The position numbers were made by a program, and so were the translations under genes. Shown here one piece after another: positions 14,966-27,257 of a DNA stretch of 64,000 bases. The notes beneath the pieces were generated by a model. The model saw only the letters and a list, made by a program, of their open reading frames with translations. It did not search any database and was not told the origin of the DNA. Each line of letters opens with the position of its first letter. Position 1 is the first letter of the stretch. The stretch is taken from the NCBI GenBank assembly GCA_020723505.1, contig DYIT01000004.1, forward strand, positions 14,560-78,559. The letters are read 5' to 3'. The stretch comes from Candidatus Kuenenia stuttgartensis (GTDB lineage Bacteria > Planctomycetota > JAKEIC01 > DYIT01).

Positions 14966-17482
14966 TCAGGATTTCAGTCCTTGCTTGTCCAGTAGTAGTT
15001 CCTCGAATACAGCGTACAAGCTTTCGTAGACGGGCCGGCTTTCTTCAGTAGGTTCCGAGTAGCAGTGCCCCATCACTTCGCGAGAGAGCCGGCAGGAATC
15101 AATCAAGACCACGACCCGGCCCAATCCTTCGTCCTTCCAGACGCAACGAAAATTCTTGTCCGGGAGGTCGAACGACTTCCCGCCTTCGATACCGCCCATC
15201 GCGACCGGTTTGATTTCGATTTCATAAGGCTCCAGAATAACGGTGCCTGCTGAGATACTCGCAAGACCGGTGCAATCAACCAGAAGCAGTTTCCCGCCTT
15301 CGCGCACGAAATTCCAAATAATCTCATACTCCTCGGATTCAAAGGCGCGCACTGGATTAATCAGGAGCAGGATGTCAGCTTCCTTCACGGCCCTTTTTAT
15401 TGAATGTTTAATCGAGGGAATGCAACCGAGGCGTTGTAGAGTTACGAAGGGTGTGTCAAAAGCTCTCTTTAGGGGGATTCCGGGTGATCCGACTGCCCCG
15501 GGGAATCCGGCCTCGCATTTGCCACTTAGAAACACCACTCTCGGCCTCTTTACGAACGGCTCCGGAAGGCGATAGTTACGCCGGTTCACCTCCGAAACAA
15601 TGAAAAGCCCGGCTAGACAGCCCACGAAAGCCGCAGGAAGCCCCGCAGCATAAAGCGTGGAGGGTCCCCTCTTCCAGTGAGAAAGAAGCACAGTAGCGAG
15701 ACCTATCGCCCCGGTCAGTAAAAAAACAACGTTCAAGGCATACCCAAAGACGTTCCTCTGATTAAGGTAGTTCATGAACCCCAGAAGAAGGCGGTAGTGA
15801 TCATGCCTGAATAGTGCAAAGGTTGAAAAAACAGTCTCATCCCCCCACACGACGACCCGGCCTTTCCCGACCTTTGTCGCAGCACCGACCATCAAAGTGC
15901 CAAACCGGGAATTCAAATCAGGCCGGAATTCTCCAAAGTTGCTGGGATTCGCCACGTCTTTCCAGTCAGAATAGCAGTTATTCGTGAGGGCTACCGTCTC
16001 ACTCAGGATAGGAGCCTCGACTGAGCAGGACGTCATGAGCTCGAAGGGCTTCTCGACTCGACAAGCTGCAGGATGAAACCCTAGAGGTCCTTCATCGAAA
16101 AGCGTATAGCCCCCGGTGGTGAGCCCGCTCAGCGCGTCGGGCCTGAACCTGAGTCCGAACCGATCCACGAGACGGTTAGAGTTCGTAGTCATCCCCATGA
16201 GGTCGTTGTGGTCGGAAAGTACCAGGAGCCCTCCTCCGCGGCGGACGAAATCCTCCACGGCATTAATTTCCCCATCTTTCAGAGGAATCGTTGGTGTCTT
16301 GACGATCAGGACATCGTGGTCTTCCAGCAGCTCCGGCGTGAAATCCCCTTTCTCGTGAATGTTCACGACATAATATGAGGTGAGCAAGGAAACAGCGTTC
16401 GAGTAGCTGTAAGCCGCGAGGTCGCCATACCAATTCTTGTCGAACTTCTTTGAGACCTGTTCCCAGTAGTCGCTATGGCTGCCGTCCACGAGAATTCGCC
16501 CCTGTTTTTGCTTTCCAGGGTCGTGAAACGTAAGACCTGCCAGAATCAGGAATACCGAGCCTAAGATTGCCGCGGGGAGGCGAAGCGGAACCTGCCTGTA
16601 GATCTGCAAGGATTCGCGGCTTGTTGAGAACGCCCCTCGGAGGTCCAGGGGCAAGAACTTGCCGAGTATCAGGGCAAGCGGCAGGAACGTGGCGATGAGG
16701 AACCATGGATCCCAGAAAACCTCCATCGGAGGCGGAATCGAGTGGTCCTTATCCACATTGGGGAAGTCGGCATATATCGCGAGGACGATAATGAAGCGGA
16801 AGAACGAAAAAGCGAGCAATACCGTCATGAAGAACAGGAACCGCCGCATCCGACTTCCAAAAGCTCCTGCCAGGAACAGAACTAGACCAGCGAAGGCGAA
16901 GCAGGTCATCGGTAAAAAAGCGATCTTGCCCGTGCTGACCACAACGGGAAGGAGGGTTGAAGAACCCTCAAGGTAGGCAGTACCGCCGGAGACGGCGCAG
17001 TCATAACCGAGAATTCTCATCGTCCAGCAGACTGGCCATGAGAGGGCCGTGAAAAATTGTGTCCTTGGTTCAAGGTGCCGGAAGAGAGCACGGAGGACGA
17101 GTTGACCCGGGAAAATCGACAGGAAGACTAACACCGCTGAGAAGGAGATCATCAAAGCTGCTTTCATGCCTGATGCAATCCTGCTGATGCGAGTAAGCGA
17201 AGGCGAAGGTGTCCTATCCACGTGTTGTTCCTGGCGGGTCATCCAGGCAACGAGCAAAAATCCGGAAACGATGAAAGCGATACCCCACCCCCACCCGTGG
17301 TTGCCGTAGTTTCCCAACAGAAATGGCCATGAAAAGGACGCAGTTAGGACCCCGACCCAGATACCGTACCCACGTATCGAGGTCGTCCGAGTAGTCGGGC
17401 TGTCCTCTCCATCTGCAAGGACTCGGCGTGCGCTCTCTATTCCCGATGGCTCGTTTCCGACGCTAATCTGATTATCCCCCAT
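14966..17482 (-). CDS. Polytopic membrane protein (838 aa) with two alpha/beta 'GG.LL.L.DH' modules (GldG/DUF4350/GATase1-like by eye); paralogue of the next gene
   Basis: About 9 N-terminal hydrophobic helices, then module 1 (DVLIVKTP...EINAVEDFVRRGGGLLVLSDHNDL ... GKGRVVVWGDETVF). More helices follow, then module 2 (ADILLLINP...EIIWNFVREGGKLLLVDCTG ... GLGRVVVLIDSCRL). GC is in the mid-50s %, lower than the core. Confidence 0.7.
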   Translation of the reverse strand: MGDNQISVGNEPSGIESARRVLADGEDSPTTRTTSIRGYGIWVGVLTASFSWPFLLGNYGNHGWGWGIAFIVSGFLLVAWMTRQEQHVDRTPSPSLTRISRIASGMKAALMISFSAVLVFLSIFPGQLVLRALFRHLEPRTQFFTALSWPVCWTMRILGYDCAVSGGTAYLEGSSTLLPVVVSTGKIAFLPMTCFAFAGLVLFLAGAFGSRMRRFLFFMTVLLAFSFFRFIIVLAIYADFPNVDKDHSIPPPMEVFWDPWFLIATFLPLALILGKFLPLDLRGAFSTSRESLQIYRQVPLRLPAAILGSVFLILAGLTFHDPGKQKQGRILVDGSHSDYWEQVSKKFDKNWYGDLAAYSYSNAVSLLTSYYVVNIHEKGDFTPELLEDHDVLIVKTPTIPLKDGEINAVEDFVRRGGGLLVLSDHNDLMGMTTNSNRLVDRFGLRFRPDALSGLTTGGYTLFDEGPLGFHPAACRVEKPFELMTSCSVEAPILSETVALTNNCYSDWKDVANPSNFGEFRPDLNSRFGTLMVGAATKVGKGRVVVWGDETVFSTFALFRHDHYRLLLGFMNYLNQRNVFGYALNVVFLLTGAIGLATVLLSHWKRGPSTLYAAGLPAAFVGCLAGLFIVSEVNRRNYRLPEPFVKRPRVVFLSGKCEAGFPGAVGSPGIPLKRAFDTPFVTLQRLGCIPSIKHSIKRAVKEADILLLINPVRAFESEEYEIIWNFVREGGKLLLVDCTGLASISAGTVILEPYEIEIKPVAMGGIEGGKSFDLPDKNFRCVWKDEGLGRVVVLIDSCRLSREVMGHCYSEPTEESRPVYESLYAVFEELLLDKQGLKS

Positions 17483-17487
17483 TCGCC

Positions 17488-19980
17488 TTATCCTTTCCCT
17501 CTCAACTGCTTCATGCGCGTAAGCATGTTACGGATGAAAGTGATGTTCCCGAGGTGCCACGCCACCATGCTCTCAACATTCCTGTTTGTAAAAAAGCGGC
17601 TATCCGACACAAACAGCATGCCTCCCTTCCCGTACTCCCGGTAAGTTGCGAGCAAATCCCCTTTGGAAACGAAGAATCTGTGAACGGCGCCGGGCGCGAG
17701 ATCTCCTTTGCTAGAGGGAGCCGGCTCGCGCACAATGATGGGCCATGCATCCATGAACTCGGGGTCCATGGGTTTCTTGTCCTTGTAGTACGTGTTCGGT
17801 GCCCGTCCGAGTGACCGGCCTTCAATGTCCAACCCAATGGCCTCAAGGAGCCGCTGTGATCCCTCCCTTTCCTCGTACCCGACGCTTAGAATGACCTGGC
17901 CTCCCTTAGCCATATAGTCCGTGATTAGATCGACCTCGTGGCATTGAATCGTTTTGAGGGGAGAAAGGATGACCAGGAGTTCAGCCTCGGATATGCTCTT
18001 CCGGTCGAAACAATTCAGAGAAACCGGAATGAACGCATTCCGTTCCAGATTAAGGTACAGGGCGCCTATTCCCCTTCCCTCGTCTCCGCCCCGGGAGGCC
18101 CAGGGGATGTGGTAGTAGTCAATTGCGGCCAGAGGGCCGGCGATAGCAGGGCCGCTCATCCGCTCCTTCGAGATTACGTCGGAAACCGGTCCGGAAAGCG
18201 CGAGGAAGAATGGGAAGATCAACGCAAGCAGCCTGGAGCCGCCGGACGCGCCCAAGGTGGTCGTCAGCAGAATCACCCAGACCAGGAATGCCAGCGGCTT
18301 AAGCCAGTACCAGCGCCCGTACACCGTTTCGCAGGAAAGCCATGTAAAGACGTTGTGCAGGAAGGGGGTGTATATGGAAGTTACAGACCCGTTCTGAAAT
18401 GATGTCGTATCTCCGAAAACCAGCACTTTCCCCCTCCCGTAGAAGGCCGCCGCGAGCAGGCACATGTCCCCCAGCTTTTCCCCATGCTCGTAGGAGTAAT
18501 TCCCGAGAAGGGATCCGCCAACGTTGTAAGGATTGCCTCCGTCCGAGAAGGAGAGCGGCCCCCATATTATGGAAATCGCAGGCGGGCCGATGGTTAGAGA
18601 TGCGCCGACGTCTATCCCTGTCTCATCCCGCGATCGCGCGCCTGCCAAAACCGGATGCCGTGCGAAAGACTGGCAGTAACTCCAGCCTCCGCGGCACGGG
18701 AACGCGGAGTCGAATTCGAACCGAACGTTGATTCTGTCGAGAAGTTCGTTGTAGGTGTCCTGGAGCCCGAAGACGTTCGTGTGGTCGCCCAGGATGAGCA
18801 AAGCCCCGCCCCTTTCCACGAACCCCCAGATTGCCCGGATCTCCCCCTCCTCCCACCGACGCCCCAGGTTGATTATGGCGAAGATGTCAGTCTCTTCAAG
18901 TTGTTCGGGCTTGAGGCGTTCGGCGTCGAGTTTCGAGACCCGGAACCCGTCCAGTTCCAGGAAGGCGGGAAGATGTCCAAACATGCCTCCCGAGTACGAG
19001 CCGTACTTTCCTAAGACTGCGGTGTCCCAGTCTAGATAGCCCTTATTCCAGAACATAATCCGATTTCTTCGAGGGGACAGGATTTCCCATGATTGCATCT
19101 GAAAGAGCGTAATCGGGACAAACGCGGCAAGCGCAACTAAGCCGACTACCCTACTGCGACTCGAGAATAGTGCAGAAGGGATCCTCTCCTTCGCGGGAAA
19201 AAGCATGGAGAGCCCGGCCAATGGCATGAGCAGTACCGGAAAAAGCCATCGGACCGAATTGGCAAGCACACCCGCCTCTTGTGGAAAGACGGTCGACGAG
19301 CTCTGGATGACCAGGAAGGCCGTCCAAGCCCCGAAGACCACTATCAGAGCTGCCGATAAAACCCGCCATGCAAAAATTCGGAAGGCAGCGGTCCCAATCA
19401 AGTAGACAATCGCAAACAGAAGCACCCAGAGACCGGAAACGGATGGACCGATTGTAATCTCGGCATTGATTAATATGCGTCCAAGCAGACCTGTGTACTC
19501 GTTGCTGAAAACTTCGAAGAAATTGTAGACAATCGGAACGGTTTCCAGGGCGAACCCCAGCGCCCACGCGAAGTACGAAAGAAGGCGCAAAGGACCGGCG
19601 CATAACGCCGGGCGTCCCCAAATAGCCGATGCCCTTCCGAACCCCCAGAGAAAGACGATAAGTAAGCCAAGGACATAGAGCCGGTCGGTCGAGAGGAAGA
19701 GAAGAAAGCCAGGGAATGCCATTGAGAGATAGGGAAGAAGCGCGTTTCGACGGAAGATAGCTTCACGTTTCGAAGGAGCCTGGAAGAGAAGAAGTCCTGC
19801 AAGGAGAAGGGCGATAAACAAGCGGCCGTTTAAAGGGCTCAGGATGCCGAAAGTGCCCCATGCTATGAGAAGTATCAGGAGAAACGTGGAATGGATGACA
19901 AGGTTCCTTGCGACTTCGGAAACCCGCAGGTTGGTGATTTTCCCCCTCAATCTCCCGAGAATGGATTCACCTGCGCTCAT
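17488..19980 (-). CDS. Polytopic membrane protein (~830 aa), paralogue of 14966..17482 with the same two-module layout
   Basis: Module 1: DIFAIINLGRRWEEGEIRAIWGFVERGGALLILGDHTNV ... GRGKVLVFGDTTSF. Module 2: AELLVILSPLK...DLITDYMAKGGQVILSVGYEE ... GKGGMLFVSDSRFF. Start at MSAGES (ATG 19980, preceded by GGAGAAG) is preferred; the ORF track extends to 20055. Confidence 0.7.
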   Translation of the reverse strand: MSAGESILGRLRGKITNLRVSEVARNLVIHSTFLLILLIAWGTFGILSPLNGRLFIALLLAGLLLFQAPSKREAIFRRNALLPYLSMAFPGFLLFLSTDRLYVLGLLIVFLWGFGRASAIWGRPALCAGPLRLLSYFAWALGFALETVPIVYNFFEVFSNEYTGLLGRILINAEITIGPSVSGLWVLLFAIVYLIGTAAFRIFAWRVLSAALIVVFGAWTAFLVIQSSSTVFPQEAGVLANSVRWLFPVLLMPLAGLSMLFPAKERIPSALFSSRSRVVGLVALAAFVPITLFQMQSWEILSPRRNRIMFWNKGYLDWDTAVLGKYGSYSGGMFGHLPAFLELDGFRVSKLDAERLKPEQLEETDIFAIINLGRRWEEGEIRAIWGFVERGGALLILGDHTNVFGLQDTYNELLDRINVRFEFDSAFPCRGGWSYCQSFARHPVLAGARSRDETGIDVGASLTIGPPAISIIWGPLSFSDGGNPYNVGGSLLGNYSYEHGEKLGDMCLLAAAFYGRGKVLVFGDTTSFQNGSVTSIYTPFLHNVFTWLSCETVYGRWYWLKPLAFLVWVILLTTTLGASGGSRLLALIFPFFLALSGPVSDVISKERMSGPAIAGPLAAIDYYHIPWASRGGDEGRGIGALYLNLERNAFIPVSLNCFDRKSISEAELLVILSPLKTIQCHEVDLITDYMAKGGQVILSVGYEEREGSQRLLEAIGLDIEGRSLGRAPNTYYKDKKPMDPEFMDAWPIIVREPAPSSKGDLAPGAVHRFFVSKGDLLATYREYGKGGMLFVSDSRFFTNRNVESMVAWHLGNITFIRNMLTRMKQLRGKG

Positions 19981-22585
19981 CTTTCTCTTCTCCAGGCGCT
20001 GGCCCATGTTCCGGAGCAAGCAAGACTCGCAACGCTGCCGCGTTTCCCCGGACAAGGTTCAAGGGCCCCGCCTCTCCCGGGCTGAAACCCCTTGCCTCCG
20101 CGCGAAAAGTATACGTCCCCTGCTTAAGAAGTAATGAGACCTTGCCGTCTTCGCCGGCGATGGGATTGATGAGCCTCCTCTCCTTTCCTCCAGCCGTGAA
20201 GGCATGCAGTGAAGCTCCAGGAATCGGTTTGCCCTTGTCATCCAGGATCTCGGCCTCAACCTTCACGCCCATACCTAGGGAGAAGATTGCACTGAAGCCG
20301 TAATTGTTGTGCGAAACCTCTATCTCGTCGTTCACTTCCGGGGCGAGTTCATTACCCTGACCCACGAGCATGTACTTGCCCGGGTCGAGGTACTTGAAGG
20401 CGCCGAACGCCTTTGCCTCGAAGTCCTTGAATCTAGCCGTGCTGTGGATCGCCCAGGCGGGACTTCCCGGCGGTATATGATAGAGGACGACTTCCACGCT
20501 TCTGCCTGCGAGACTGCATCCCTCGCTCCTTACCTCGATGTTGATTTCCCCTCTCGGCAGGCTGATGTCTGCAACCAAGTGCCCGACCTTATCCTTGACT
20601 TCGATGTATTTGCGGTAAGTATCGCCTCGGCGTCTTACTTCGAGAGTGTACTTCCCGGGGCGGACTGTCTTGTATATGTAGCGCCCTTCCTTCATCTCAG
20701 CTTTCTGAGCAAATCGGGCGGTACGGTCCCATGGGTAGAGGAGGAAAATCTCGGCATCCTGAACCGGGAGCCCGCCGTAAATCAAGTTGCCTTCCAGAGA
20801 AGGGCTTAACCCGTACATCTTGTCGTTGAACTCAAGCTGTGAGCTCATTTCGTTATCAAGAATAAACCCGGTAACGGGATGCCTTTCCATTCCCTTGAGG
20901 GCACACAGGGAAGTGAGGTAGGAGAAGCCTGGATTTACACCCGTGAGATTGAAATTGCCATTACCGTCGGGGAAGGTGATACGGAAGAAGCCCTCCTCGT
21001 CATAGACGACTAAAGGCTCGAACTTGCAAAGAGCTTTCCCTGAAATACGCCCCCCTTTGGAGAGTTGGATGACGAGAGGTTCCGATGGTTTCTCTCCTTC
21101 CTTCCCTTTCTCCGTGCTCGGTCCAATCGAGACGAACCTCGTGGTTGCGTAGTCCGGGTGAACTACGAGAAAAAAGGATGGGTATGCCGGGACGCGGTCG
21201 AAGCAGAATCGGCCTCCAGCATCCGTCGCGGTCCAGCGCCGAATTACGGCGCCCCCTATATTCTGGACTATCGAACCAAGAAGCTTCCCGGCACGGTTGG
21301 AAGGTTCCCAACAGACCATGGCGTCAGACAGCGGCTCTCCAGTATCCTGCGCATGAACATGGCCTTTGACCTTGCGGCCGGCATTGAACCTAAGATCCTC
21401 TGGGTTGACTCTGCCGTCGGAGATCAGACGAAACGGATAGTATAGGTCCGCAAAGGCCGGATTTTCGGACCGGATTAGGTAGTTGCCTGCCGGAAGCGCA
21501 GGCAGCTCTATCCTGCCATCGTCATCTGATTTCACGGGTAGTGAAAATGCATCTTCCGGAATGTTCGGGATTGCGATGCGGAAGGCGGATTTCCCGATGG
21601 GATTTTTCCCTTCGGTGTCGGAAGCCCTGATAGTCCCTGCATCGGCCTTTGGCATGTCAATCTTCACCCCCTGGGATCCGGAGATCACGTTTTCGACTAG
21701 GGAAATGAATTTTCCTTTATTAAAGAGAAGCAGTGTGTATGGTCCGCCGGGGAGGTGCTCGAATCGGAAGGAGCCGTCATTCGCGGGGTGAATGATGAAT
21801 CGGAAGGGCACGGCAGGGGTCAGTGCGACCAACTCAATGTCCTCTGGGGCCATGTCCGTACTCGTCCTGACTGATCCCTCTAACCAAGCTCCTTCTTCGA
21901 GGCGAATCTTAAGCTCCTTCAACAAGACGCCGGGTCTGATGACTGCGCCCTTGCATGCAGGGGCAAAACCCTGTGACCAGGCATAGACCTTGAACGCGCA
22001 AGGCGGAAGTTCCGTTTTGAAGGCACCGTCTTTTTCTGAGACTAATGAAGCGACAGATGGGGAGGGCGAGCTCCTCGACTCTGCTCGGGGCAGGCTTCCT
22101 GACGAGCTGTTCCCGCCATGCGGCCACCCGAAACCCGGAAGTCCTGAAACACCTGAGGCAATGTCTTGCATGGCGAGGACACCGTCTTTGACCAGTAAAA
22201 CCGGCTCCGGATTCCACACTCCGTTGAATGGAACGAAAAATATCCGACATCCTGAAATTGATTTGGCTGAAGGGTTGAGTACCAATCCTTCAATCAAGCC
22301 CCGGTTCCCAGGGACTTTTTCCAGGGTTTTCGACGCATCACGCTCTTTATCTCCAGCCTTGTCCGAATCGTGTTCTCCTTTCTTTTTATCATCCACGGAA
22401 TGCTGTGGGTCGTTCGGAAACCAAATTCGATCATCACGGCGCCCTGCTGATCCCCAGAGCAAGAACGCGGAGACAATCGGAACGGAGGCGATAAGACCCC
22501 AAGAGGCGATCGTTACTGAAACTCTCAGGGGCGGCCAAGAAGCCGCCCCTGAGAGGAAATCCCGCATTTTACCGAAGGCATTCAT
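19967..22585 (-). CDS. N-terminally membrane-anchored protein (872 aa) built of repeated CarboxypepD_reg-like beta-sandwich modules
   Basis: Single N-terminal TM (VTIASWGLIASVPIVSAFLLW). Recurrent 'PG.Y' strand motif: LPGGPYTLLLF, LPAGNYLIRSE, VRPGKYTLEVR, LDPGKYMLVGQ, LKQGTYTFRAE. ATGA overlap with the upstream gene at 22582-22585. Confidence 0.75.
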   Translation of the reverse strand: MNAFGKMRDFLSGAASWPPLRVSVTIASWGLIASVPIVSAFLLWGSAGRRDDRIWFPNDPQHSVDDKKKGEHDSDKAGDKERDASKTLEKVPGNRGLIEGLVLNPSAKSISGCRIFFVPFNGVWNPEPVLLVKDGVLAMQDIASGVSGLPGFGWPHGGNSSSGSLPRAESRSSPSPSVASLVSEKDGAFKTELPPCAFKVYAWSQGFAPACKGAVIRPGVLLKELKIRLEEGAWLEGSVRTSTDMAPEDIELVALTPAVPFRFIIHPANDGSFRFEHLPGGPYTLLLFNKGKFISLVENVISGSQGVKIDMPKADAGTIRASDTEGKNPIGKSAFRIAIPNIPEDAFSLPVKSDDDGRIELPALPAGNYLIRSENPAFADLYYPFRLISDGRVNPEDLRFNAGRKVKGHVHAQDTGEPLSDAMVCWEPSNRAGKLLGSIVQNIGGAVIRRWTATDAGGRFCFDRVPAYPSFFLVVHPDYATTRFVSIGPSTEKGKEGEKPSEPLVIQLSKGGRISGKALCKFEPLVVYDEEGFFRITFPDGNGNFNLTGVNPGFSYLTSLCALKGMERHPVTGFILDNEMSSQLEFNDKMYGLSPSLEGNLIYGGLPVQDAEIFLLYPWDRTARFAQKAEMKEGRYIYKTVRPGKYTLEVRRRGDTYRKYIEVKDKVGHLVADISLPRGEINIEVRSEGCSLAGRSVEVVLYHIPPGSPAWAIHSTARFKDFEAKAFGAFKYLDPGKYMLVGQGNELAPEVNDEIEVSHNNYGFSAIFSLGMGVKVEAEILDDKGKPIPGASLHAFTAGGKERRLINPIAGEDGKVSLLLKQGTYTFRAEARGFSPGEAGPLNLVRGNAAALRVLLAPEHGPAPGEEKDERR

Positions 22586-22725
22586 TTCCTTTTATCGCTC
22601 TTGTCGTTATTTGCAGGCGGAGGAGGCGGATCAGCGAAGAACTCCACGCCGGCGGAAATCGGGGAGAGGTTCCCCGCCGCATCCCGCGCCTGCGCATGGA
22701 TCGTGTGCCAGCCGGGCGACAGCGG
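22569..22725. repeat. Direct repeat copy A (~157 bp): 3' end of the Ig-repeat gene plus the first 6 codons of the 872-aa gene
   Basis: Aligns by hand with 26840-26988. The first ~120 nt differ at about 7 positions. The last ~30 nt are more diverged, with a 9-nt indel (ccagccggg present only in copy A). Confidence 0.85.
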
Positions 22726-24981
22726 TTTGACGACCTGGAAAGAGAACAACCCGCCCCCATCCGCAGGCGTCTCCCCTTCCGGATTTGCATCAATAAGGAT
22801 TGACACGATGCTCAGAGGCTCTGAGGTTCCCCTGATTATTGGGGTCTTTGTCGTCATCTCGCCGTTCACCGGCGATCTGATGAGGGGTGCCGCCGGAGGC
22901 ACAGTGTCTACTTTGAATACGATGGTCTCGGAGGTTGCAGTGTTTCCTGCGCCATCTGAGGCTACGGCGTAGACTGTGTGGAGACCCTCAGCCAAGGGGG
23001 CGGTCAGAGTGAATGAGAACACTCCGCCCGGTCCGGTAGTTGTGGTTCCGGCCAGGTTCTCGTCAACCACGATTGCGATTTCTGCGTCAGAGTCCGTGCC
23101 TGCGCCGGAAATTGTCGGCGTGCTGTCGTTTGTCAGTTCAATTGGGTTGAGAATCGGTGTCCCGATGAGCGTATCCACAGTGAATGAAACTGTTTTGGAT
23201 GCGGCCGTGTTTCCCGCAGCGTCAGTCGCCACGGCGTAGCCCGTGTGCAGACCGTCGCCAAGCGCAGTGGGTACCGTCATATTGAACCCGCCGCCTTCGT
23301 TTGCCGTGACCAAACCAACCAGATCGCCATCAACGTATACATGCACTAAAGCGCCCACATCTGTTCCTGAACCCACAACATCAGGTGTGTTGTCCGAGAT
23401 TACGCTCCCGTTGGCCGGACTCGTGATAATCGGCGTTCCAATCACGGTGTCAATAATAATATGCACATAGTTTGACGGTTCTGTGAATACTCCTTCCGGA
23501 CTCACGCCAATTGCAAAAATAACATGCTCACCATCCTGTAAAATAATTTCCGTTTCATATTCGAATTGTCCGCTTGGACATGATATTTCTTCAATCTCAA
23601 TGCTATCAATATAGAATTTGCAATTAAATCCAACTTCCACTGTTCCAATTATTTCTGGTTTACTATCATTTGATATCAGATAATCAGGAGGGGAAACAAT
23701 ATGTGGCGGAGAATATCCATGCTCTCTACCACATGTTCCACTCTCATCTGGGACTTTTTTTGTTTTCCTTACACTGCATCTAATAGCCTCACCACTTTGG
23801 TTATTGCCAATACTGCAGACTCCTTTTTTCTCTTCATTCAATAATGTGCAAATCCCTTTCCCAACATCCTCAACAGAACAAAATGCATTGTTCTTTTTTC
23901 CGACCTGATTCTCAGAAGGAGTAAATACTGAACATTGTCCAGTATTTGCTTCCTGCATAATGCTGCAGTTCGAAAAGTGCCCGGATCCGCCACCGTCCAT
24001 AACTGAGCAAAATGCATCAAATGCACCTTTTTCAATTGAACATCTTGCTTCTCCCGTTTGAGTGCTTTGCACACTGCATTTAGCTACCCCCATTCCTCCG
24101 CCATCAGAGTCAATAGCACTGCATTCTGGACTTCTTTCACCATCGAGTGGAGAATCATGAAAGACACTGCAACTAGAATTGTTACCGCTGTCATTGCTAA
24201 AAACTGAACAAAAAACCTCCTCCGTTTCTTTTTGTACAACCGAGCATTTCTGTTGTTCTCCGCGATCCATGAAAACGCTGCACATGTCGCTCGATCCAAT
24301 TCTAGTTCTCGATTTACCTACGCTGCAATTTGCTTTCCCACCTTCCCCTGCATTATCAACAGAACACCATTGATCTGATTCTTTTGACCAGCTTACGACC
24401 GAACAACCTGCTTGCCCTGCCGATTTAGTACTTTCTAGAACACTACAACTATTTCGATGAGGAGGTCCCTCTGTCGATCCCTCTTGTACGCTACAACTTG
24501 CCCTACCCGAATCAACCCATGCCGAGCAAAACGTATTCTCTTTGCTTGTATCGAATACCGAGCATGAACTTTTATTTGAGTTTCCATAAACTGAGCATCG
24601 TGCCTCTCCAATATCATTTTCACCAACAACAGAGCATTGCTTCCTATCTTCCGCTACAGAACAGTGCTGACTCTCCCCCGATGTTGAGCATCTTCCTCCA
24701 GCATATATATCGCAATCAACTGAACAATTTTTATCTGGCCGCGGGAGATGCTCTGTACTACATACAATATTTTGAATAGAAATAACACCGGATTCTGCAA
24801 TACCAAAAGGATTCTGGATTTTAATTTCATTTGATAAAATCCTAGAACCGATATTTTCACAATCCAGTTGGCCTAGATAATTATAGTTCAATTCAGCAAA
24901 ACAAACATCAACCTGAAAAGAAAGTAACGAAATTACAAGAACCAAACCGTATCTGATATTTCTATAGCTTGTGCTACTCAT
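22582..24981 (-). CDS. Secreted chimeric surface protein (799 aa): signal peptide, ~27 'C-S-V' repeat units, one AT-rich Ig-like module, then three GC-rich bacterial Ig-like repeats and a Pro/Lys tail
   Basis: Signal peptide MSSTSYRNIRYGLVLVISLLSFQVDVCFA. C-S-[VIA] units span residues 74-417. Three ~90-aa repeats end in ...GLHTGYAVATDAAGNTA / ...GLHTVYAVASDGAGNTA / ...GWHTIHAQARDAAGNLS. GC jumps from the mid-30s % to roughly 55-65% near 23450 inside the ORF. Confidence 0.8.
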   Translation of the reverse strand: MSSTSYRNIRYGLVLVISLLSFQVDVCFAELNYNYLGQLDCENIGSRILSNEIKIQNPFGIAESGVISIQNIVCSTEHLPRPDKNCSVDCDIYAGGRCSTSGESQHCSVAEDRKQCSVVGENDIGEARCSVYGNSNKSSCSVFDTSKENTFCSAWVDSGRASCSVQEGSTEGPPHRNSCSVLESTKSAGQAGCSVVSWSKESDQWCSVDNAGEGGKANCSVGKSRTRIGSSDMCSVFMDRGEQQKCSVVQKETEEVFCSVFSNDSGNNSSCSVFHDSPLDGERSPECSAIDSDGGGMGVAKCSVQSTQTGEARCSIEKGAFDAFCSVMDGGGSGHFSNCSIMQEANTGQCSVFTPSENQVGKKNNAFCSVEDVGKGICTLLNEEKKGVCSIGNNQSGEAIRCSVRKTKKVPDESGTCGREHGYSPPHIVSPPDYLISNDSKPEIIGTVEVGFNCKFYIDSIEIEEISCPSGQFEYETEIILQDGEHVIFAIGVSPEGVFTEPSNYVHIIIDTVIGTPIITSPANGSVISDNTPDVVGSGTDVGALVHVYVDGDLVGLVTANEGGGFNMTVPTALGDGLHTGYAVATDAAGNTAASKTVSFTVDTLIGTPILNPIELTNDSTPTISGAGTDSDAEIAIVVDENLAGTTTTGPGGVFSFTLTAPLAEGLHTVYAVASDGAGNTATSETIVFKVDTVPPAAPLIRSPVNGEMTTKTPIIRGTSEPLSIVSILIDANPEGETPADGGGLFSFQVVKPLSPGWHTIHAQARDAAGNLSPISAGVEFFADPPPPPANNDKSDKRK

Positions 24982-26411
24982 TTAGGACCCCCTTTTCCGA
25001 AAAAGTCCTCGAGAAACCCTTCAGCTGCTTCTTCAGGAGACAACCGCTTGATATATACTTTAGCTTCTATGTCTGGGCCATCTATAACTAACGTGTTATC
25101 AGCGCCAGGAAATACACTGATTAGCTTGTAATAGTCTGATTGAATTTTAAGCACATGTGTGCCGATTGGGACATTTGATACAATAGTATATCCGGCTGTA
25201 TTTGAGTTAAATTTAATCGGCGCAAACCTGTGCGACTTTTCAATCAACAGGAATTTAATTACATCAGAAAAGGGGGCACGGTTATCATCATTAATAAAAT
25301 GAATATTCAATTTATAAGCCTTTTCCAGAAGGAAATCAATTCTGTTAATATTCTGTTTATCATTTATTATAAAAGTAGTGGACATTTTCGCAAATCCTTC
25401 GCAACCAATAACCAAATCGTACTCTCCGAAAGGGACATTACGCAAAGAAAATGTACTCTCGGAGAAAACGCCGGATTTCCTTAAACTGTATATTTCATTG
25501 CAATTTGGCGAGATTGAGATAAGCTCATATGAGAATTCACATTTATCATGGTTGAAACAAGGGTTATTTATCTGAATCTGTAGCTCTGCAACCGATAAGA
25601 AAATATCGAACTTAACGGGCAGGTTATTAAAAACGACATTTCTTGAAAGTGTGACTGAATTTTCGTTAGGTAGAAATATATAAATATAATAATCCTCAAG
25701 AAGCATTCCAGGAAAGATATAAAAACCATCCGACATAGTAAGATAAGATTGGAAAAGTCTATGATTCTGATGCAATTCTATCCGTGCATTTTCAACTGGG
25801 ACGTAATGCTTATCATAGATAGTGCCATAAAGAGAATCATCGCCAATTAAGAAAAAGTCAGGGAGAACTAGATTCAGTCTCTTAACGTCATTTGGAAATA
25901 GAGAAATCTTTACTGATTTGTAAATCATACTATTTTCAGGAAGAAAAGCGATAATCGAAACAAAATGAGGTCTTGCAACCAAAGTCTGAATAGAATAGAA
26001 TGTGCCGTCTTCAGATGCAAAGAGAATCTTCTGCCTGGAACTGGGATTATTTACAATGATTTTTGCGTTTGAACATGGGGATCCATCTGCTTTTAGGACT
26101 TTGCCGAGCACCATGGCTTCATTAAATCTCAGATTCGATATATTTGTTTGGAAATCTGTCAATCTATTTTGACAAATCTGATTGTAAGATTGCTCTGATG
26201 AAACAGAATCAAAAAAGGTTTGATTTAATCCAACTGAATTCGCAGCATTTTGTGATAAGGAATAGCCAGCTAGGGTTATGGAATCACCTGCTTTTAAAAA
26301 ATGAATAAATAGAAAAATAGCAAATAAACAAATAAAAACTATTATAAAGAAGGAAAGATAAATAGATTTACAATTCCAATGGGAGTTCTTTATATTATCA
26401 TATTTAATCAT
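24978..26411 (-). CDS. N-terminally membrane-anchored protein (477 aa) with ~4 CarboxypepD_reg-like beta-sandwich modules; very AT-rich
   Basis: TM IYLSFFIIVFICLFAIFLFIHFL. Module starts such as GKVLKADGSPCSNAKIIVNN and GTIYDKHYVPVENARIELHQ. 'P.G.Y/H' strands NVPFGEYDLVIG and NVPIGTHVLKIQ. ATGA overlaps at both ends. About 32-35% GC. Confidence 0.7.
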   Translation of the reverse strand: MIKYDNIKNSHWNCKSIYLSFFIIVFICLFAIFLFIHFLKAGDSITLAGYSLSQNAANSVGLNQTFFDSVSSEQSYNQICQNRLTDFQTNISNLRFNEAMVLGKVLKADGSPCSNAKIIVNNPSSRQKILFASEDGTFYSIQTLVARPHFVSIIAFLPENSMIYKSVKISLFPNDVKRLNLVLPDFFLIGDDSLYGTIYDKHYVPVENARIELHQNHRLFQSYLTMSDGFYIFPGMLLEDYYIYIFLPNENSVTLSRNVVFNNLPVKFDIFLSVAELQIQINNPCFNHDKCEFSYELISISPNCNEIYSLRKSGVFSESTFSLRNVPFGEYDLVIGCEGFAKMSTTFIINDKQNINRIDFLLEKAYKLNIHFINDDNRAPFSDVIKFLLIEKSHRFAPIKFNSNTAGYTIVSNVPIGTHVLKIQSDYYKLISVFPGADNTLVIDGPDIEAKVYIKRLSPEEAAEGFLEDFFGKGGPK

Positions 26412-26629
26412 GATGCCAACCCCATTGAGGTTTTGTAATAAAACTTACAGATGTCGACAAATAGGTAGTTAATAATAGCTGTACGTGCTGAAGAAAATCT
26501 TTGAAATCCATTGAACATGTCCTTCATCCTAAGCCAAATTTCCCATCGCATCGATTTAACCAAATGAGGGTGGATGTAAAATAATGAGCAAATAACATCC
26601 ATAATCCCTCCATGTTTATAGAATCCCAA
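26408..26629 (-). CDS. Possible small ORF (73 aa) heading the AT-rich part of the operon
   Basis: Its stop overlaps the start of the 477-aa gene in an ATGA arrangement. A 73-codon open frame is fairly unusual in ~33% GC DNA. No recognisable motif. Confidence 0.25.
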   Translation of the reverse strand: MGFYKHGGIMDVICSLFYIHPHLVKSMRWEIWLRMKDMFNGFQRFSSARTAIINYLFVDICKFYYKTSMGLAS

Positions 26630-26839
26630 TCCCCATCCTTAAAGTCAAGAAAAATCAGAAAAACAAAAAACGTGTGAAATGTTATTGGGGAGTTCGGAAA
26701 CCGAGTACAGTCAAGTGTGGTTACAGTTCTCTTGGATATCCTTCGGTTGATTCAAAACGACGCAACAACCAGTAGGCCAATGTGTTACAACGCAGCTACG
26801 AAAACGGAAGCCTCATAATTTCATAGAAAAACCCGTTTC

Positions 26840-26988
26840 TTACCGAAGGCAATCATTTCTTTTTATCGCTCTTGTCGTTATTTGCAGACGGAGGAGGCGG
26901 ATCTGCGAAGAACTCCACGCCGGCGGAAATCGGGGAGAGGTTCACAGCCGCATCTCGCGCCGCGCAATGGACCGTGTGTGACAGCGGG
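26840..26988. repeat. Direct repeat copy B (~149 bp), same orientation as copy A, at the right edge of the AT-rich block
   Basis: Encodes ...HTVHCAARDAAVNLSPISAGVEFFADPPPPSANNDKSDKKK*, versus ...HTIHAQARDAAGNLSPISAGVEFFADPPPPPANNDKSDKRK* in copy A. It then retains ATGATTGCCTTCGGTAAG (MIAFGK; copy A has MNAFGK) before AT-rich DNA starts at 26839. Confidence 0.85.
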
Positions 26989-27257
26989 GCGCGCTCGAAA
27001 AGGACCCTGTTCGTGATTTCAGCGCCCACGTACTTGAGGGCACGTGAGAGCATACCCACTGCGTAATTCGCGGCAGCCGGATCCGAGTCGACGGGCGGAA
27101 GAACCAGCACGACCTTCTTGCCCTTGAACGGGAACTTGCGGATTGCGTCGAACCAGCGGTACACGAAAGCCTTGAACTGGGCGGTGGGCCCCCACCAGTA
27201 CTCGGGCGTCCCCAGAACCGTTCCCACACCCCGCTCTCCTCCACATTGCGGCTTCAT
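26853..27257 (-). pseudogene. Chimeric remnant: internal fragment of a flavodoxin-like/NADPH-dependent FMN reductase-type protein fused to a duplicated tail of the Ig-repeat gene
   Basis: LGTPEYWWGPTAQFKAFVYRWFDAIRKFPFKGKKVVLVLPP...YAVGMLSRALKYVGAEI resembles the middle of flavodoxin-family proteins (GtPvYw...t.q.KafiDR). The N-terminal FMN-binding part is missing, with an in-frame TGA 3 codons upstream of the ATG. The C-terminal 40 aa are repeat copy B. Confidence 0.55.

Follow-up and report, generated by a model that had tools for sequence, protein, structure and literature searches.

How does a single, uninterrupted bacterial gene come to consist of a low-GC front half and a GC-richer rear half? 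The gene in question codes for a putative secreted protein of 799 amino acids (aa) and lies on the reverse strand of a 64,000-nucleotide (nt) stretch of Candidatus Kuenenia stuttgartensis (GenBank assembly GCA_020723505.1, contig DYIT01000004.1, positions 14,560 to 78,559), which is termed the window here and provides the coordinates used throughout. Intragenic steps in guanine-plus-cytosine (GC) content are easily mistaken for new domain fusions or misassemblies, and an earlier note on this DNA had read the step as a fusion creating a new surface protein. Comparison with homologues yields a third option, in which the layout is conserved, the front half and a partner gene turn over, and gene conversion keeps the rear half uniform. 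With moderate confidence, we favour a mosaic surface-protein locus, where recombination between family members has linked a low-GC 5' cassette that varies with a GC-richer 3' block that is conserved.

A compositional step at a domain boundary

The base-composition switch inside the 799-aa gene is real and abrupt. A single-step maximum-likelihood fit of the GC content at third codon positions (GC3) along the open reading frame (ORF) 22582..24981 places the best change point after codon 510, at coordinate 23451, between the residues SNYVHIII and DTVIGTPI. GC3 is 0.29 before this point and 0.63 after it, with a 2-unit support interval of codons 498-518 and a log-likelihood gain of 43.7 (200 codon shuffles: mean 2.4, maximum 8.6), and the GC content of four-fold degenerate sites is 0.26 upstream and 0.61 downstream. 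Bins of 20 codons around the step give 0.20 and 0.35 before and 0.75 after it, with a single noisy dip to 0.30 at +20, and therefore the GC3 profile is stepwise rather than smooth. The reading frame is unbroken across the step. The earlier note, which described an abrupt switch near 23450 (around codon 511) in a continuous frame and proposed a GC3 profile as a check, is borne out in position, sharpness and frame.

The protein carries three stretches in residues 511-785 that match the Pfam family Big_13 (PF19077; E=1.7e-37, 128.4 bits versus a gathering cut-off of 27), in addition to Big_6 and Big_7 matches. The corresponding immunoglobulin-like (Ig) domains Ig1-Ig3 share 37-48% mutual identity and also match the NCBIfam entry Ca_tandemer (NF033510; E=6.1e-26). 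A fourth, more diverged domain termed Ig0 occupies residues 424-510 on the low-GC side and is 22-26% identical to Ig1-Ig3. An AlphaFold model of residues 424-799 comprises four beta-sandwich domains (mean predicted local distance difference test score 88.8), where the last strand of Ig0 (VHIII, strand E83-87 of the model) precedes a coil (88-94). The compositional step is predicted to fall directly after this strand and, on the model, sits in the inter-domain linker between Ig0 and Ig1. The region of Cys-Ser-Val (CSV) repeats upstream of Ig0 matches no curated family.

The layout is shared with a related organism

By its sequence, the 799-aa gene is a member of a small, undescribed family of putative secreted proteins, which combine a signal peptide, CSV repeats, four Big_13-type Ig domains and a Pro/Lys tail. 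Word-index searches with residues 1-510 and with the product of the adjacent upstream gene (p477) returned the queries themselves only, and an exhaustive HMMER search was needed to find relatives. With residues 1-510 this search mostly gave Ig0 matches in giant repeat proteins, and the only homologues spanning both the CSV repeats and Ig0 are two genes, P0024 (856 aa) and P0026 (839 aa), located together on a contig of a related metagenomic organism (L011). P0026 shows every element of the layout, from the signal peptide through the CSV repeats, Ig0 and Ig1-Ig3 to a tail of the form EFFADPPPP...KK, while its tandem paralogue P0024 has the same layout but terminates after Ig2. The motif at the junction is kept in both genes: SNTVHIIIDTIIGKPIIT and SNTVYFVIDTVIGKPV.

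The surroundings of the gene are conserved as well. L011 harbours tandem modules in the order 442-aa CarboxypepD_reg-like gene, 856-aa CSV-Ig gene (module A), 61 aa, 394-aa gene, 839-aa CSV-Ig gene (module B) and a homologue of p872, the 872-aa protein encoded downstream of the 799-aa gene in the window. Both in the window and in L011, a gene of the transmembrane (TM)/CarboxypepD_reg type lies upstream, where similarity is weak (p477 versus the 442-aa gene of module A: 22.5% over 120 aa, E=0.004). Downstream, a p872-type gene has kept its position beside the homologous CSV-Ig gene (38-41% identity between p872 and a 410-aa partial ORF of L011).

For residues 511-799 the nearest relative is again P0026 (57% identity), with all other matches at 44% or less. 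Compared to the L011 homologues, the window protein is 35-40% identical in its N-terminal part and 56-60% identical in its C-terminal part. A search with separate halves, which the earlier note had suggested as a means to reveal different lineages, assigns both to the same nearest relatives (P0026, and for the 5' half also P0024). P0026 already possesses the whole layout, and the two halves do not differ in affinity; the layout therefore did not arise in the window, and the notion of a fusion that gave rise to a new surface protein is contradicted by two genes sharing layout and junction motif. Beyond these genes, neither the junction motifs nor p872 had a match in two scans covering 185,579 species genomes, 40 phylogenetic relatives contain no p872 orthologue, and a metagenome scan retrieved only more copies of the L011 organism (L011-L016).

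The step recurs, and rear halves bear signs of recombination

Both L011 homologues show a GC3 step of their own. In module A GC3 changes from 0.36 to 0.77 at codon 680 (Ig0/Ig1 boundary at codon 661; log-likelihood gain 47.6), and in module B from 0.40 to 0.80 at codon 534 (boundary at codon 550; gain 65.8); in the window gene, change point and boundary are both at codon 510. The join is therefore inherited within the family or recurrent, and not a one-off invention. Across the steps in L011, three to four assemblies obtained independently from different samples have identical DNA, and therefore such mosaics are no assembly artefact in the L011 organism.

The domains on either side of the boundary differ in their pattern of similarity. 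Ig0 is 51% identical between the window protein and module A and 40% between modules A and B. For Ig1-2, modules A and B reach 84.5% identity, and the window protein is 56-60% identical to either of them. At the DNA level, the identity between A and B rises from ~55% via ~75% to ~95% and ends exactly at the boundary between Ig2 and Ig3. This pattern points to a 3' block that was duplicated or gene-converted between the tandem L011 modules, the 5' cassettes of which remain very different.

Two further features of L011 concern the same modules. A run of 13 G residues (L011:4140-4170) is located ~115 nt upstream of the 394-aa gene heading module B; five independent assemblies stop at most ~160 nt from it, and mismatches accumulate at their ends. 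The G13 tract could be phase-variable or merely a trouble spot for sequencing and assembly. Moreover, the L013 contig lacks 62 nt (L011:2302-2363) in the CSV region of the module A gene, which yields ORFs of 284 aa and 526 aa, and is otherwise identical to L011 save one mismatch near its own end (L011 position 4136). The gap is either a deletion variant in the population or an assembly error.

The low-GC block and its genomic surroundings

The low-GC sequence extends from 23451 to ~26824 and comprises the 5' part of the 799-aa gene, gene 24978..26411 and a 413-nt spacer (Table 1). The 5' module proposed earlier is thus indeed low in GC, but it does not end at the gene start, which the stop codon of p477 overlaps (ATGA). 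Both p477 and the 5' part of the 799-aa gene look foreign to the genome: among its long ORFs, their GC3 and codon-usage index rank below the 0.1st percentile. As to the suggested import, the foreign appearance holds, but no donor was found. The long ORFs of the genome have a median GC3 of 0.81, as does the adjacent dnaJ, and the genes of the 12-kb island around the 799-aa gene have values of 0.61 (p872), 0.67 (p855) and 0.63 (p838). With a GC3 of 0.63, the 3' half equals these island neighbours and not the core, to which the earlier note had likened the downstream Ig repeats.

Table 1. Features in and around the low-GC block (window coordinates).
Feature	Coordinates	Strand	Description
799-aa putative secreted-protein gene	22582..24981	(-)	Signal peptide, ~27 CSV repeats, four Ig-like domains Ig0-Ig3, Pro/Lys-rich tail
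Low-GC 5' part of 799-aa gene	23452..24981	(-)	Codons 1-510; signal peptide, CSV repeats, Ig0; GC 0.40, GC3 0.29
GC-richer 3' part of 799-aa gene	22585..23451	(-)	Codons 511-799; Ig1-Ig3 and tail; GC 0.58, GC3 0.63
Reported junction	23380..23530	(-)	GC3 change point at 23451, end of last predicted Ig0 beta-strand, before DTVIGTP linker
477-aa gene (p477)	24978..26411	(-)	N-terminal TM helix, CarboxypepD_reg-like beta-sandwich repeats (PF13620, E=3.4e-11); GC3 0.31
Low-GC spacer	26412..26824	(-)	413 nt, GC 0.385; upstream end of low-GC block
872-aa TM protein gene (p872)	19967..22585	(-)	CarboxypepD_reg repeats; downstream of 799-aa gene, translationally coupled (ATGA)
R1, functional repeat copy	22554..22707	(-)	End of 799-aa gene and start of 872-aa gene
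R2, upstream repeat copy	26825..26978	(-)	Last 38 codons of Ig3/tail, ATGA overlap, ~9 codons of p872-like start
FMN-reductase internal fragment	27000..27218	(-)	Residues 89-161 of a 205-aa paralogue; in-frame fusion to R2
Chimeric ORF	26853..27257	(-)	134 aa; FMN-reductase fragment and duplicated Ig tail

Neither residues 1-510 nor p477 have a paralogue in the 4.95-Mb assembly, an absence that is not absolute at 89% completeness. Silent-cassette antigenic variation of the pilE/pilS type was considered and rejected, as no partial copies of the variable part are present in this assembly. The spacer has no convincing ORF and no Rfam match, and promoter and terminator scans at the block stayed at background level. 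An origin of the block as a mobile element was likewise rejected on the basis of these scans and the lack of plasmid, phage, PHROGs and Rfam matches.

A 4.1-kb segment (22708-26824) containing the low-GC block is bracketed by a 154-nt direct repeat (R1 and R2), the copies of which are 88-90% identical, with a longest exact run of ~39 nt read from the alignment. This segment also includes the GC-rich Ig1-Ig3, and hence the repeats as a pair do not mark the limits of the low-GC block. Beyond R1 and R2 no homology is found upstream, and downstream there is a lone 28-nt patch (score 14 versus a shuffle maximum of 16). R2 can be read as what remains of a former upstream module, whose 3' end it would represent. 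An in-frame fusion links R2 to an internal piece of a flavin mononucleotide (FMN) reductase, intact paralogues of which are encoded on the contigs C152 (75% aa identity) and C115 (71%). R1/R2 represent a 3'-end duplication of the same kind as that between the L011 modules, albeit with different break points.

Some neighbouring and genome-wide features are worth recording. The tandem polytopic membrane proteins p838 and p855 (838 and 855 aa; 14966-20055, reverse strand) have DUF4350, ABC_transp_aux/GldG-like and GIFT-like matches; they are ~26% identical over 399 alignable aa and, at a GC3 of 0.63-0.67, resemble the Ig1-3 block rather than the core. The whole assembly (61.5% GC) includes 26 stretches of at least 1 kb with a GC content below 45%, the largest being C124:33501-39000 and C13:38001-41500, the latter on the window's own contig. 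Another low-GC islet (C21:8500-10000, GC 0.37-0.46) encodes a 372-aa membrane protein beside a WYL/WCX-type regulator. As a homologous regulator flanks a CSV cassette in L017 (see below), this islet was inspected for such a cassette, and no CSV gene was found.

CSV genes outside the family

CSV repeats also occur in genes of other composition and context. The CSV genes of L018 and L019 have a GC3 of 0.59 and 0.87, respectively, and an intrinsic AT-richness of the repeats was rejected as an explanation given the value for L019. On a contig of an NCBI metagenome-assembled genome (MAG), termed L017, a gene with CSV repeats only (433 aa) overlaps one of the TM/CarboxypepD_reg type (466 aa) (L017:4394-7086; GCA_041310525.1, JBFYXN010000277.1). 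This two-gene islet has a GC3 of 0.41 versus 0.74-0.86 in its flanks and adjoins an IS3-type transposase and an AbiEi-like gene. The location of the islet beside a transposase supports the view that low-GC CSV cassettes may be mobile. The L017 contig further contains 139-nt repeats, which are 93% identical to ones in the window's genome.

A probable mosaic surface-protein locus

In the account that we favour, the locus would consist of two compartments. The 5' cassette would comprise the TM/CarboxypepD_reg-like gene, the signal peptide, the CSV rod and Ig0, highly divergent and with a GC content far below that of the host. The 3' block would include Ig1-Ig3, the tail and the p872-type gene, and would be conserved, GC-richer and a substrate for duplication or gene conversion between modules. 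At codon 510, the GC step would then mark the edge of the exchanged part. In the window, a low-GC cassette (23451-26824) would have been joined to the Ig1-3 block of the island at the Ig0/Ig1 linker through recombination between homologous family members. Either a new module would have been integrated into a tandem array or the 3' part would have been converted; a former upstream module may later have been lost, leaving behind R2 fused to the FMN-reductase fragment. This account builds on what the sequences show, namely the compositional step and its recurrence, the size of the low-GC block, the direct repeat, the layout kept in relatives and the gene conversion in the L011 organism, whereas the direction and order of events as well as a low-GC donor are presumed. 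As to function, the variable half may be exposed at the surface, and the conserved half may dock to p872 and the GldG-like p855/p838; both roles we infer.

Several points weigh against this account. The CSV-Ig family is present in two organisms only, and thus three genes underlie the claim that the step recurs. The change points are -16 to +19 codons off the domain boundary, which fits fuzzy edges and independent events equally well. At 35-60% aa identity between window and L011, synonymous sites should have equilibrated if cassette and 3' block had long been together, and a lasting GC3 gap at such divergence therefore needs repeated import or regional bias. There is no integrase or transposase ORF within 22-27.4 kb and no transfer RNA (tRNA) gene at the block, nor do plasmids, phages or PHROGs contain matches to it. 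Finally, the exhaustive HMMER search yielded no low-GC donor, and the nearest low-GC relative does not exceed 37% identity.

A more elaborate form of the proposal is a dedicated cassette-exchange system, in which the conserved, GC-rich Ig1-3/tail repeats would serve as recombination anchors, low-GC heads (partner gene, CSV rod and Ig0) would be stacked in tandem, converted and swapped both inside one genome and among genomes, and the G13 tract of L011 might act as an on/off element. We consider such a system rather improbable; if it existed, cassette exchange would provide surface variation comparable to pilin or tail-fibre switching.

Alternative explanations

The strongest competitor of the mosaic locus shaped by recombination is an old mosaic without recent transfer. 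Here, local bias would maintain the GC3 gap, either through GC-biased gene conversion in Ig1-3 and the tail, or through selection or mutational bias acting on an AT-rich 5' cassette. In favour of this explanation, the step has almost the same position in three genes with a mutual identity of just 35-60%, and GC3 does peak where recombination is evident: it reaches 0.83-0.87 in codons 736-780 of the window gene (the R1 region) and 0.77-0.80 in the Ig1-2 tract of L011. However, repeat-free single-copy neighbours match the GC3 of Ig1-3 (0.61-0.67 in the window, 0.72 in L011), and therefore the low-GC side is the anomaly. Bias on the cassette has to accommodate the non-coding spacer and the unrelated p477, which are low in GC too, CSV genes elsewhere with a GC3 of up to 0.87, and the L017 cassette that adjoins a transposase. 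We regard an old mosaic as a possible but unlikely explanation.

An assembly artefact, that is, a chimeric MAG contig joining the homologous gene of a low-GC organism to the resident gene, appears very unlikely. The MAG consists of 207 contigs, is 89% complete with 4.4% contamination, and contains the exact 799-aa protein on one contig only; moreover, the upstream edge of the block coincides with R2. Yet, the block is internal to a 95.6-kb contig and flanked on either side by GC-rich sequence, the identity of R1 and R2 is only 88-90% (longest exact run ~39 nt), and shared k-mers are improbable at 23451, where the two sides differ too much in composition. The join also reproduces a conserved domain order and motif, and its L011 equivalents were assembled identically from several independent samples.

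Lineage-specific domain shuffling, by which an imported signal peptide and stalk were joined to unrelated resident Ig repeats in a new layout, would explain why composition changes sharply at a domain boundary without loss of frame, but is the least credible of the alternatives, given that homologues already possess layout and junction motif, that the low-GC side already contains the homologous domain Ig0, and that both halves share their nearest relatives.

Comparison with known systems

Mosaic surface genes in which one end is exchanged have counterparts in other bacteria and phages. In Pseudomonas aeruginosa, Kus et al. are said to have described in 2004 pilA allele groups with linked accessory genes. 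The window locus resembles this case by an intragenic junction and a conserved gene end, with the other end and an accessory gene forming an exchanged cassette of atypical composition. It differs by its reversed polarity, since the 5' end and the upstream gene vary here, as well as by an unrelated protein family and the lack of a nearby tRNA. Furthermore, with two organisms known, allele groups are not definable. O-antigen and capsule clusters are low in GC and flanked by conserved recombination anchors. Likewise, the locus studied here is a candidate hypervariable surface locus with a GC content well below that of the genome and conserved flanks as putative crossover sites. In contrast to these clusters, the anchor is placed inside protein-coding repeats, and exchange would give rise to a protein chimera instead of replacing a set of genes.

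In phage tail-fibre mosaics, the attachment end is conserved, the receptor-binding end varies, and a chaperone gene accompanies them. Common to them and the window locus are modular exchange at domain boundaries, a co-transferred neighbour gene and blocks that are unlike in composition and divergence, whereas a phage context, as judged by phage-record or PHROGs matches, is lacking here. By composition and codon usage (GC3 0.29-0.31 versus 0.81) the block also fits an acquired genomic islet, albeit one without mobility genes, tRNA target or donor.

As to mechanism, homology-facilitated illegitimate recombination was reportedly described in 2002 by de Vries and Wackernagel and by Prudhomme et al. 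The end-state in the window is similar: one segment end lies in homologous Ig repeats, and the other abuts a patchwork of gene fragments (R2 and the FMN-reductase piece). The difference is that such a mechanism would here be deduced from the end-state alone.

Finally, Ig1-3 match the models PF19077 and NF033510 in the manner of Big_13/Ca_tandemer adhesins. Typical members of that group are giant proteins with tens of repeats, and the window protein carries four domains behind a CSV-repeat region. While the type of event is ordinary, the protein family is the newer element, and it provides a concrete locus for how high-GC bacteria retain low-GC variable cassettes.

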